Below, one piece after another: positions 23,323 through 29,395 of a DNA stretch of 64,000 nt. Both the position numbers and the translations under genes were made by a program. Below the pieces are notes generated by a model. It ran no database searches. It worked only from the letters and a program-made list of their open reading frames with translations, and was not told the origin of the DNA. The number at the start of each line of letters is the position of its first letter. Positions within the stretch are counted from its first letter, which is position 1. Source of the DNA: Fidelibacterota bacterium (lineage in GTDB: Bacteria > Fidelibacterota > Marinisomatia > Marinisomatales > TCS56); NCBI GenBank assembly GCA_043822705.1, contig JBDRBK010000115.1:1-64000 (forward strand), in the 5' to 3' direction.

Positions 23323-24191
23323 TACCGAAACTGGAATTTTCCCAAAATACCCTGGGGACGTTTAAGCATTAACAGTACCAGCAGCAGGCCGTAGATCATC
23401 TGCCGCAGTGGCGCGGCGATCGAACTGGGTAAACCTAAAAAGCGCAATAATTCCGGTAAGATTACTAGTACGGCGGCGCCGATAAACGAACCCCGCAAAC
23501 TACCCATCCCGCCGAAGACCACCATTAGCAGGATCGTGATTGATTCCATGACGGTGAAACTGGAAGGATCGATAAAGGTGATATAATGGGCGTACAGGCT
23601 GCCGGCGATCCCGGCGAAGAAAGCGCCGATGACAAATACTAGGATTTTGTGCCGGTTTACATCCTTGCCCAGCGCCTGAACGGCGATTTCATCTTCCCGG
23701 ATTCCACGTAAAATTCGGCCAAAGGGCGAATCGACAATCCGTCGGATTATGAAATAAGTCAGGAAGACGAAAACCGCCACCAGCAGCAGATACGACCAGA
23801 TCGAGTTCAATTGATAGCCGAAAATCGAAAAACCGGGTATACCTGGTAATCCCATGGGGCCTCGAGTAAGCGATACCCAGTTCTTGGCGATATTGTAAAC
23901 AATCACCCCCGAACCGAAGGTGGCGATGGCCAGGTAATCGCCTTTTAAACGCAGGGCCGGCATTGCGATAACAATTCCGAATAAACCGGCGAAAACCGCA
24001 CCGATGAGCAGTCCGATCCAGGGTGATAAACCATAATTTAATGCCAGCAGAGTAGAAGTATAGGCGCCGACGGCCGAAAAAGCCGCATGCCCCATCGCCG
24101 GCAGACCGGTAAAACCCACTACCAGGTTAAGGCTTAAAGCCAGAATAATGTATATCCCGGTGATTACTAATATGTGGAGGAGGTATTCCAT
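23322..24191 (-). CDS. livM: Branched-chain amino acid-type ABC permease (LivM-like)
   Basis: 'LRLKGDYLAIAT', 'SPFGRILRGIREDE', 'GGMGSLRG'. Confidence 0.9.
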   Translation of the reverse strand: MEYLLHILVITGIYIILALSLNLVVGFTGLPAMGHAAFSAVGAYTSTLLALNYGLSPWIGLLIGAVFAGLFGIVIAMPALRLKGDYLAIATFGSGVIVYNIAKNWVSLTRGPMGLPGIPGFSIFGYQLNSIWSYLLLVAVFVFLTYFIIRRIVDSPFGRILRGIREDEIAVQALGKDVNRHKILVFVIGAFFAGIAGSLYAHYITFIDPSSFTVMESITILLMVVFGGMGSLRGSFIGAAVLVILPELLRFLGLPSSIAAPLRQMIYGLLLVLLMLKRPQGILGKFQFR

Positions 24192-24661
24192 TAGGACTCA
24201 TCCCCCCGCCTGCGTGCCTTCGGCGGGCAGGCGGGCCCCTTCTCTCTCGAGAGAAGGGGAGAATAGGTTTTCCCATCTATTTTTTTAAGAGAGGGATTAG
24301 GGGTGAGTTCGATAAAATCACCAAGTCTTTTTAAAACCTGATCCAGCTTATTTAATATATCATGATTACTAAAGCGGATTACTTTATATTCCAAATTATT
24401 CAGAATTACCGTACGCAGTGTATCGTAATCCTTCTGTTGTTCATGTACACCACCATCAATTTCTACTATCAACTGTAATTGGTGACAATAGAAATCGGCA
24501 ATGAAGATGCGTTTATCAGTATCATATTCGAACAGGATCGGATACTGACGATTGAATTTCAATCCCCGAAATTGCCGGTTGCGCACCGTTTGCCAGAAAG
24601 CTTTTTCGGCTGGCGTGCTTCTTTTACGCAAATCACGGCAGGTTTGGGTGATGTTAGGCAT
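24191..24661 (-). CDS. DUF559 (Vsr-like) endonuclease
   Basis: 'LRKRSTPAE', 'KFNRQYPI', 'ADFYC', 'VEIDGGVH', 'KVIRFSN'; the tail is translated repeat sequence. Confidence 0.9.
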   Translation of the reverse strand: MPNITQTCRDLRKRSTPAEKAFWQTVRNRQFRGLKFNRQYPILFEYDTDKRIFIADFYCHQLQLIVEIDGGVHEQQKDYDTLRTVILNNLEYKVIRFSNHDILNKLDQVLKRLGDFIELTPNPSLKKIDGKTYSPLLSREKGPACPPKARRRGDES

Positions 24662-25852: not shown

Positions 25853-26046
25853 AATTTACCATTGCTACTGATTTCCAATCATTAAATGGAAACGTTATAT
25901 CCTTAGCTTGCAGAGATTTTATGAATGGTTGTCTTATAAAATATGTAAATCCTTGAAGAGTCTTCATAACCATAAGTCTGATAGAGGGGGTATCCATTTA
26001 ACTTTTATGTTAACATCCAATGATTAATGGAACTCCTCAGTACTTT

Positions 26047-26212
26047 TCTATCCAGCTATTCTTTTATAAGCAGACACCGTTATCTTGGGGCTGCAGGATC
26101 GTAATTTTACGCTGACTAGGGTGGGGTGCATTCTGTGTATAGCAGATATTAGTAGTTACTGGTACTGCAGTTAAGTGGACAGCACTATTCCCACGATATG
26201 ATTTTGGATAGA
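26047..26212 (-). ncRNA. Predicted IS110 bridge RNA/seekRNA with target-binding and donor-binding loops
   Basis: Two internal loops, each around a GCAG/CTGC stem, carry four segments matching the target and donor flanks; RNA ends are approximate. Confidence 0.8.
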
Positions 26213-26213
26213 G

Positions 26214-27284
26214 TTAAGCGATTCCGACCTCATAGTTTGTTTCGTTAAGTAGTACGAAGCGTATGCGCCGTAGCAGTTTTCGAGCGATACGAATGATGGC
26301 ACGATTACCATTCATACGATTGGTTAAGTTTTGGTAGGTACTTATTAATCCCGGATCATTCCTTAATGCTGCCCAGCTGTTCTCGATCAACAAGGTCTTT
26401 AGTATTCGGTTGCCTCTAGTGTCGATTCCGAAGACGTTCTGTTTTTCACCGCTGGATTTTTCTCTTGGGATAAGACCAATATAGCAAGCTAATTGATCAA
26501 TAGACTGGAACCGATTAATATCCACCAATTCAGTCAACCAGGTCATAGCGCTAATAATACCAATACCAGGGATGGTTATTAAGTGTTTAACCTGCTGGCG
26601 ATACCGGTCATTTTTGGCGAGCTCACGGATTTTACTGTCAATAGCGAGTTCCTGTTGGTTAAAAAACCGGTATTGATCAATCAGATTAAGTAATGAATCT
26701 GTCCCTGTACTTGAGTGCATTCGATCAGGATCACTGGCCCAGTCGAGAAAAGCTTTGGACCAACAACGGCCTTGATAGCAGTCCGGTGTCTTGACGCCAT
26801 GGAAGCGCAGCAGGCTTTTAATACGGTTCTTTGTTCGGGTTTTATCTTTAATCAACCTCAAACGCTGGCGCATCAGAGCACGATCTTCCCTGGCAGTAAT
26901 GGATGGTATATAAACAGAGTTTAGCTCACCGTTCTTCAGGCTTTTGGCAATCCGTCTACTATCACGTGGATCCGACTTATGGCGTTTATCCTTATCAGTA
27001 ATGGGAATATCAGCGGGGTGTATGACATGACAATCAATGCCCAGTGACTCCAGATGATCATGTACCCAAAACCCATTGTAACCAGCTTCATATGCAACAT
27101 GATAATCTGCTCCAGGAAAGTTGCGTTTGAGATATGTCACAAGCTTATCTGGTTCCGGTGGCTGATTAAATGTTTTATGTTCAAACTGCTCAGTATGGAT
27201 GCTGACAGACCAACTCTTATTATGAACATCGATTCCAACAAAAATAGATTGACCGGTGAAATCCAATCGTTTATTTTGCACCAT
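26214..27284 (-). CDS. IS110-family recombinase/transposase
   Basis: DEDD RuvC-like motifs 'FVGIDVH', 'YEAG', 'KSDPRDS'; 'TIPGIG'; C-terminal 'GLIPREKSSG' serine motif. Confidence 0.95.
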   Translation of the reverse strand: MVQNKRLDFTGQSIFVGIDVHNKSWSVSIHTEQFEHKTFNQPPEPDKLVTYLKRNFPGADYHVAYEAGYNGFWVHDHLESLGIDCHVIHPADIPITDKDKRHKSDPRDSRRIAKSLKNGELNSVYIPSITAREDRALMRQRLRLIKDKTRTKNRIKSLLRFHGVKTPDCYQGRCWSKAFLDWASDPDRMHSSTGTDSLLNLIDQYRFFNQQELAIDSKIRELAKNDRYRQQVKHLITIPGIGIISAMTWLTELVDINRFQSIDQLACYIGLIPREKSSGEKQNVFGIDTRGNRILKTLLIENSWAALRNDPGLISTYQNLTNRMNGNRAIIRIARKLLRRIRFVLLNETNYEVGIA

Positions 27285-27343
27285 AATAGGGTTCCTCTTG
27301 TTATTGCGATGATAACGTAAGTTATCACTTGAGGAGCCCTATT
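27285..27343 (-). promoter_or_regulatory. Leader hairpin that pairs the transposase ribosome-binding site
   Basis: aatagggttcctc (27285-27297) / gaggagccctatt (27331-27343) are a 12/13 inverted match; inner stem tgataac/gttatca; abuts the ATG. Confidence 0.65.
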
Positions 27344-27384
27344 TCTATGCTGTTAAACATACGATCTGTGTAAATGGTATTTTG

Positions 27385-28602
27385 TCAGTCATTGTGAACC
27401 ATTCGATCTTCAAACAGAATGGCAAAGTGATTCATGGCCTCTTTCCAGTTTTGTATGGGCATGGTCCACTTTTTACTGGCATTTTCCAAGGCTAAATATA
27501 ATATTTTAAAGATCGCATCGTCATTAGGGAATGAGCCCCGGGTTTTGGTCACCTTCCTCAGCGACATGTTCAAGGACTCAATCGCATTGGTGGTATATAT
27601 TGCTCTTCGTATCCCTTCCGGGTAGCCGAAGAATGGAGTCAACCGCTCCCAGTTGTTACTCCAGGATTTACTAACGGTAGGATGAGTTTTGTCCCACTTC
27701 TGAGCAAAGGTATCCAGATTCTCACGGGCCTCTTCAGCTGTGCCGGCACTGTAGATGGTCTTCAGATCATCGGCCATCTCTTTTCGCTGTTTCCACGATA
27801 CATACTTTAAGGAATGACGGATCATATGAACAATACAGAGCTGAACCTGAGTATCAGGGTAAACCGTCTCAATAGCATCAGGAAAACCCTTTAATCCATC
27901 GACGCTGGCAATGAAAATATCGTTTAGGCCTCTGTTCTTTAACTCTGTCAATACACCCAGCCAGAACTTGGCTCCTTCAGTCTTGGCGATCCACATACCC
28001 AGAACATCCTTGATACCTTCCACATTGATACCAATGGCCAGGTAGACAGCTAAATTGGCAATATGTCCTTCTGAGCGTCCTTTAATACGAATAGCGTCCA
28101 GATAGACAATCGGGGACAGTGGGTCAAGCGGCCGGTTCTGCCAGGCTCTAACCTCAGCAAGTACTGCATCTGTTACTTTGGATACCAGAGAGGGAGATAC
28201 TTCTACTCCATAAATATCTTTCAGCTGCGCTTGAATATCACGAGTGGTCATTCCCCGGGCGTACATAGCTATAATTTTATCATCAAAACCATCAAAGCGG
28301 GTCTGACGTTTTTTGATCAGCTGGGGTTCGTAGGTACCGTTACGATCACGGGGTACATCGACTGGGATTTCGCCCAGATCGCCTTTGAGAACTTTATGGC
28401 CTTTTCCGTTACGGGAGTTACCGGTATTATTACCTGTCTGTGAATGAGGAGGATAACCCAGATGATCGGTCATCTCTCCTTCAAGGGCACGCTCTACAAT
28501 GATCTTGGTCAGTTGCTTCAATAAACCGTCTTTACCAAGAATATCTTCTGGACTATCGCAGTCTTTTAATAATTCATCTATCAATTCATCTTTTCTGGTC
28601 AT
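27385..28602 (-). CDS. IS256-family (Mutator-like) DDE transposase
   Basis: 'NSRNG', 'VPRDRNG', 'MYARGMTTRDI', 'VYLDAI', 'DGLKGF', 'QLCIVH', 'IYTTNAIES'. Confidence 0.97.
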   Translation of the reverse strand: MTRKDELIDELLKDCDSPEDILGKDGLLKQLTKIIVERALEGEMTDHLGYPPHSQTGNNTGNSRNGKGHKVLKGDLGEIPVDVPRDRNGTYEPQLIKKRQTRFDGFDDKIIAMYARGMTTRDIQAQLKDIYGVEVSPSLVSKVTDAVLAEVRAWQNRPLDPLSPIVYLDAIRIKGRSEGHIANLAVYLAIGINVEGIKDVLGMWIAKTEGAKFWLGVLTELKNRGLNDIFIASVDGLKGFPDAIETVYPDTQVQLCIVHMIRHSLKYVSWKQRKEMADDLKTIYSAGTAEEARENLDTFAQKWDKTHPTVSKSWSNNWERLTPFFGYPEGIRRAIYTTNAIESLNMSLRKVTKTRGSFPNDDAIFKILYLALENASKKWTMPIQNWKEAMNHFAILFEDRMVHND

Positions 28603-28674
28603 CGTTAACTCCTTTTTTTGACTCTGAGTTTATTTTATCGATAACCATTTACACACTTAGAAATACACCCTCAG

Positions 28675-28975: not shown

Positions 28976-29395
28976 GTGAATGATAACCTAACAAAAACGC
29001 AACGAAGTTATTGTATGTCCCAAAATAAGGGTAAAGATACAAATTCAGAAAAAAAAGTGAGATCAGAATTGCATTTCAGGGGTTTTCGCTTCCGGAAAAA
29101 TGATAAACGCTATCCCGGTAAGCCGGATATTGTATTACCGAAATATAAATGCATAATATTTATTAATGGCTGCTTTTGGCACGGTCACAAAGGATGTAAA
29201 GCCTCGAAATTACCGGATAGTAATCGTCCGTTCTGGGAAAAGAAGATTTCTGATAATATCAATAGAGATGTCAGCAATATCAGTGAATTAGAAGAACTTG
29301 GCTTTAGGGTGATTACAGTATGGGAATGTGAATTGGTTGCAAAAGCCAATAGGGCTACACGGCTAGAACGATTGAAAAATGAGATAATTATGTAA
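28976..29395 (+). CDS. vsr: Very short patch repair endonuclease
   Basis: 'QRSYCMS', 'PGKPDIV', 'IFINGCFWHGH', 'FWEKKI', 'VITVWECE'. Confidence 0.92.
   Translation: MNDNLTKTQRSYCMSQNKGKDTNSEKKVRSELHFRGFRFRKNDKRYPGKPDIVLPKYKCIIFINGCFWHGHKGCKASKLPDSNRPFWEKKISDNINRDVSNISELEELGFRVITVWECELVAKANRATRLERLKNEIIM

Follow-up and report, generated by a model that had tools for sequence, protein, structure and literature searches.

Among insertion sequences (IS) of the IS110 family, IS4321 and IS5075 are said, in work by Partridge and Hall from 2003, to target the terminal inverted repeats (IRs) of Tn21-family transposons. The IS1111-type seekRNA elements ISEc11, ISKpn4 and ISPa11 have a non-coding region downstream of tnp, according to Siddiquee et al. 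(2024, PMC11187229), and IS621 encodes a bridge RNA with one loop for the target and one for the element's own ends, both centred on a 2-bp core, as described by Durrant et al. (2024, PMC11208160) and Hiraizumi et al. (2026, PMC13626964). Here, we report an IS110-family element inside the terminal repeat of an IS256-family IS. Both habit and mechanism are already known, and the case is a new and well-supported instance of them. The element was likely placed by its recombinase together with a predicted guide RNA, and the lineage that it represents is likely a specialist on IS256 ends, as judged from sequence comparison. IS256 is absent from the main text and the readable supplements of PMC11187229, and a literature search by title and abstract start, with most subscription papers and ISfinder beyond its scope, returned no IS110 element in an IS256 end with a bridge RNA.

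In the window, by which we mean the whole stretch of 64,000 nucleotides that was analysed, a 1,364-bp IS110-family element (26004–27367, minus strand, including one copy of the core) interrupts, at a CT core, the right IR of an IS256-family IS that is intact in other respects. The outer part of this IR (bp 1–18, 25986–26003) ends with the core copy at 26002–26003, and the inner part (bp 19–29) follows the insert at 27368–27378. The two junctions have exactly two letters in common, CT at 26002–26003 and CT at 27366–27367, and the position of the cut is thus fixed to within the core. Apart from this 2-bp core at both junctions, the insert has no longer duplication and no terminal IRs. Excision of 26004–27367 in silico yields a 29-mer that is identical in 22 of 29 positions to the reverse complement of the uninterrupted left IR (28644–28672). 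A weight matrix was built from IS256 relatives of the same phylum, which contributed 22 IRs, 13 at the right end, from 16 loci; the host's own IRs were excluded. On this matrix the rebuilt right IR scores 31.7 bits, a value reached by none of 6,676,840 genome positions, and the left IR scores 22.7 bits.

The host transposase (27385–28602, minus strand) is an intact frame of 405 amino acids of the Mutator-type DDE class, recognised by PF00872 and by NF033543 with 422.8 bits against a cut-off of 150. The insertion core comes 17 nt after its stop codon, compared with 11–22 nt in relatives, and the IS without its insert would measure 1,323 bp, within the 1,317–1,355 bp of all eight relatives for which both ends were found. 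Its terminal IRs are imperfect and resemble those of IS256 relatives. Members of the IS256 family characteristically generate a target duplication of 8–9 bp. None was found flanking the host; its absence was rejected as informative because a duplication of at least 8 bp is likewise missing in seven of the eight two-ended relatives (two of these seven at contig ends) and is seen in one. The neighbourhood includes a DUF559 gene inside an ABC-transporter cluster (24191–24661) and a Vsr endonuclease gene beyond the IS256 element (28976–29395).

An uninterrupted right end was found in one of eight public sequencing runs, all examined at the level of contigs. In run X5, which belongs to a study other than that of run X1, a single 151-nt contig of depth 2 aligns to 27366–27500 with one difference, and the 15 loose letters that precede 27366 match window positions 25987–26001 in full (15/15). 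This empty end may belong to another copy of the IS or to the same locus without its insert, both being possible because the outer flank was not seen. The occupied state is found in run X1, possibly the source sample, where a contig crosses the IS110/IS256 junction at 27114–27380 without difference but has just 13 letters on the IS256 side. Contigs of runs X2–X4 and X6–X8 contained neither an empty site nor a circle, which is no evidence of absence since their cover is patchy, and the RNA runs gave neither a joint nor a contig over the RNA region. The first-pass annotation of this DNA had proposed a precise insertion inside the IS256 right IR, and the 22/29 match of the rebuilt IR, the two-letter overlap of the junctions, the top score in the genome and the empty end in X5 all agree with it. 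The assembly has one copy of the IS256 element and one whole copy of the IS110 element, both in the same 124-kb contig; beyond these, the search for copies gave only two fragments of a sibling of the IS110 element.

The IS110-family recombinase (26214–27284, minus strand) is an open frame of 356 amino acids with DEDD and GL-P----SG motifs, assigned by Pfam (PF01548 and PF02371) and by NF033542 (216.8 bits against a cut-off of 140); the closest proteins (P0121, P0122 and P0002–P0004) are 69–92% identical to it. Near the ends of the element lie short, imperfect subterminal inverted repeats of about 10 bp with a one-base gap. The right one (26007–26019) overlaps a predicted −35 box at 26015–26020, and the left one (27348–27360) is accompanied by a predicted −10 box at 27356–27361, both boxes on the minus strand. 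Beyond these repeats the element extends 7 bp on the left and 3 bp on the right, offsets that are shared by homologues of 38–56% identity. When the ends are joined, the predicted boxes are 17 bp apart, and the same spacing occurs in 20 of 23 parsed homologue loci; the right-end parser demanded a nearby TTG, so that the count of −35 boxes is biased, and left the spacing free. Upstream of the gene, a leader hairpin (27285–27343, minus strand, z = −4.35) pairs with the ribosome-binding region and, on the folding model, would damp translation of the recombinase, including translation from transcripts that read through from the host gene. Similar complementary leader arms are visible in IS110 homologues.

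The non-coding sequence of the element is distributed unevenly, with 210 bp on the right (26004–26213, minus strand, 3' of the gene) and 81 bp on the left. The longer region likely encodes a two-loop bridge/seek RNA (about 26056–26197) whose predicted guides match the insertion site. Four of its segments, all read on the minus strand, correspond to target or element ends. The predicted left-donor guide (26061–26067) equals the right end of the element plus the core (7/7), the predicted right-donor guide (26097–26103) is complementary to seven letters of the element's own left end (7/7), the predicted left-target guide (26133–26139) matches the inner half of the IR, core included, in 7/7 positions, and the predicted right-target guide (26169–26178) matches the outer half, again with the core, in 9/10. 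Both singly and in a 15-sequence alignment the region folds into stems, the consensus fold keeps the guides unpaired, and compensatory changes are seen in 6 of its 16 pairs; the single fold is weakly better than shuffled sequences (z = −1.84 and −0.75).

Of 61 homologue loci, 23 could be parsed; the other 38 were excluded because they were partial, had short flanks or could not be parsed. Four partly mis-parsed loci (L004, L016, L089 and L093) were retained in the guide analysis. Fourteen distinct guide pairs, that of the window included, agreed with the flanks of their own elements at an average of 10.64 out of 13 positions outside the core, compared with 5.31 ± 0.63 after shuffling, and none of 10,000 shuffles scored as high, a result that overstates how well guides track flanks because the loci are kin and not independent. 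In 21 of the 23 parsed loci the left-donor guide is identical to the right end of its own element together with the core; the two misses are mis-parsed ends. Guide-based specificity, as the annotation had presumed, is supported by the fit of both target guides to the occupied site and by the tracking of own flanks among homologues.

The analogy to IS4321 and IS5075, which the annotation had also drawn, holds in so far as an IS110-family element with a 3' non-coding region again sits within the terminal repeat of another transposable element. Here, however, the host belongs to the IS256 family and is no Tn21-family transposon, and the element's subterminal repeats are short as well as imperfect. 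Its transposase shares 25.8% identity with that of IS4321 across 81% of the length and is found on a distant branch, which places the element outside the IS4321/IS5075 subgroup. One complete site is known here, compared with nearly 900 for IS4321 in PMC11187229. There is also likeness to the IS1111-type elements as that paper portrays them: the downstream non-coding region, the 7- and 3-bp terminal extensions and an RNA in which the complement of the top strand precedes the match to the bottom strand, by which the IS1111 group is recognised, are all present, as are the GL-P----SG motif and a predicted promoter at the circle junction. Differences from the same description are the subterminal repeat (near-perfect and 11–13 bp long there, gapped by one base and about 10 bp long here), the length of the protein (356 compared with 330–350 amino acids) and the IS256 IR as target, the repeat length falling inside the 7–17 bp range given in PMC11208160. 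With IS621 the element shares a target loop, an own-ends loop and a 2-bp core, but its RNA lies in the right end and not the left, the order of guides differs from that in PMC11208160 and PMC13626964, and protein similarity is weak (E = 1.6e-4). ISSso6, an IS110-family element, is among the best-scoring named plasmid matches (30%). In a transposase tree of 32 rows with three named references the element falls far from IS4321 and in a 24-row clade with ISSso6 (support 99/99), the placement of ISSso6 being unsure on account of its long branch. The clade as a whole is 25–31% identical to the plasmid-borne IS110 elements searched.

By analogy with IS621 and ISEc11, the IS110 element would form a circle in which the joined ends create a sigma-70-type promoter of 17-bp spacing. 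The RNA transcribed from it would fold into two loops, one for the target and one for the donor, and strand exchange by the recombinase at the 2-bp core would proceed in a single orientation, without duplication of the target.

The guides also bear on the choice of the right IR over the left. At the core position the left IR reads GT, a difference to which the annotation had attributed its vacancy. The argument is true yet incomplete, because GT is one of six mismatches to the right-target guide, which matches the left IR in 4/10 positions, the occupied end in 9/10 and the IRs of relatives in 2–6/10. For the window's 15-letter guide, the genome contains no site with at most one mismatch and two with at most two. 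One of these two is an orphan IS256-like right end on contig C90, which carries the CT core, matches the guide in 13/15 positions and is empty. This end (G000 C90:460–508) and another (C41:61466–61494, near a tRNA-like fragment) are orphan IS256-like ends with no transposase nearby. A further proposal, that IS256 ends serve the element as a multicopy neutral site, finds no backing in this genome, since each element is present in a single copy and the well-matching end on C90 stands empty.

What the insertion does to its host can be considered in the light of ISCth4, which we take to belong to the IS256 family. In PMC7780238, where ISCth4 is compared with IS256, its donor IR is bound over bp 7–11 and 14–25, its recipient end is bound weakly, and a junction that retains just 14 bp of one IR remains able to integrate in vitro, though at a slower rate. 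The insertion at bp 17–18 splits a subterminal site equivalent to that of ISCth4 and leaves 18 bp at the tip. With its gene intact and this right-end binding site divided, the IS256 host would likely have lowered mobility until the insert is precisely excised. Since excision by IS621 is less efficient than insertion (PMC13626964), any such block could be long-lived. Integration of the 14-bp junction of ISCth4, on the other hand, implies that the nested unit may remain mobile, the left IR serving as donor. The host would then circularise, using the 18-bp right tip as recipient, and would carry the IS110 element along in a 2.7-kb unit. This possibility, which concerns the effect on the host and is compatible with guided placement, we regard as rather doubtful: the host transposase frame and the left IR are intact, and the weak binding and slow integration reported for ISCth4 would suit a shortened recipient end, but the insert cuts what would be an ISCth4-type donor site (bp 7–11 and 14–25; PMC7780238), the assembly holds no second copy of the nested unit, and no target duplication flanks it, a lack that, as noted above, is shared by seven of eight relatives.

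Guided placement itself may reflect a lasting habit, and for this the sibling fragments are informative. A broken sibling of the IS110 element, 84% identical, is found at C214:17016–17386 and is probably joined with C133:34183–34323. Near codon 302 it is interrupted by a multicopy IS, the ends of which are found again at several contig ends, and its 5' part has been lost beside a 127-bp element with IS3-like ends. The C214 sibling has kept the left guide and has a different right guide, which matches the remaining flank of the sibling over seven contiguous letters; a contig of run X6 reproduces this allele. All four altered guide letters fit the commonest form of the IS256 IR (11 of 22), and the 10-letter site of the sibling occurs in 11 of the 22 IRs of relatives and twice in the 3.3-Mb genome. 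This retuned match suggests specialisation on IS256 ends, in which the left-target guide would stay on the conserved inner motif of the IR and the right-target guide would be retuned to its variable part. The close relative P0121, on a public contig of 1,488 bases, has lost its stop codon and its tail is read through; the tail shows the left guide unchanged and suggests a third allele of the right guide, rich in A and T.

A comparable arrangement is found at locus L096 (G073:C1), where an IS110 element of 36% identity splits the right IR of a distant IS256-family IS with a 409-aa protein. Its core copies lie at 1421–1422 and 2857–2858, the rebuilt end matches its left IR in 22/28 positions, and the insertion, in the same orientation as that in the window, lies about 8 bp nearer to the outer tip of the IR. 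No second close copy of this element was found in 41 genomes. An IS256 end beside an IS256 gene was occupied at 1 of 78 IS110 homologue loci, from which it follows that the clade as a whole does not share the habit, and relatives of 41–56% identity have unrelated targets. Neither 401 genomes of the phylum, nor 233 genomes of the order, nor viral contigs contained a close relative with flanks, and P0002 was likewise not found in viral contigs. Exact matches to the 17-mer target at 11 viral loci were taken as chance, neither transposase being present, and the single viral locus with the guide motif had no transposase; the junction pattern matched eight times beyond the window in the 233 order genomes, with neither transposase in any. 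Homologues of about 50% identity at L091, L092, L095 and L106 are inserted a short way from tRNA-like fragments in their left flanks, possibly at the ends of integrated elements. At L033, L038, L040–L049 and L019, about 35 letters of the left flank are alike at different loci, which suggests a dispersed repeat as target. The reverse nesting is seen at L007:1300–2690, where an IS256-family IS lies within the donor loop in the 3' non-coding region of an IS110 homologue.

On these observations the IS110 lineage is probably, though by no means certainly, specialised on IS256 ends. Insertion could instead have been guided but incidental, if the guide had evolved for some other repeat or had drifted and happened to match an IS256 end once. 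We find this unlikely. A single complete site is known, the 10-letter site of the window occurs in none of the 22 IRs of relatives, relatives at 41–56% identity go elsewhere, and the remaining flank of the C214 sibling is weakly IR-like (its 18 letters are equalled by 0.28% of genome positions and the 8 letters outside the guide by 0.58%, the other flank being lost), all of which would accord with an incidental match. Against this, the genome offers the guide no other site within one mismatch, one of the two sites at two mismatches is itself an IS256-like end, and the four changed letters of the sibling guide agree with the commonest IR form. Misassembly of two neighbouring elements, or wrongly drawn boundaries, might be suspected in an assembly of 218 contigs with 6% contamination and with no run contig across 26003/26004, but is highly improbable given the core at both junctions at offsets conserved in homologues, guides that spell out both flanks, the empty end in X5 and the X1 contig across the other junction.

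If the lineage is specialised, we tentatively suggest a more far-reaching form of the relationship, namely a dedicated parasite of IS256 ends in the course of retargeting, with one guide fixed on the invariant inner motif and the other rewritten as the repeat varies, whose guides would co-evolve with host ends as matched allele pairs, and whose nested unit may ride on the host transposase. IS256-family ends may be added to the list of mobile elements targeted by IS110-family recombinases, with an empty site and four predicted guides that can be read. With its divergence (25–31% identity) and a predicted two-loop RNA that is compact, at about 140 nt, the clade is also a candidate for supplying bridge recombinases. 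Because two sibling guide alleles occur in the same genome, they offer a natural example of how guides are reprogrammed, and a simple way to test whether one transposon holds another back or travels with it.
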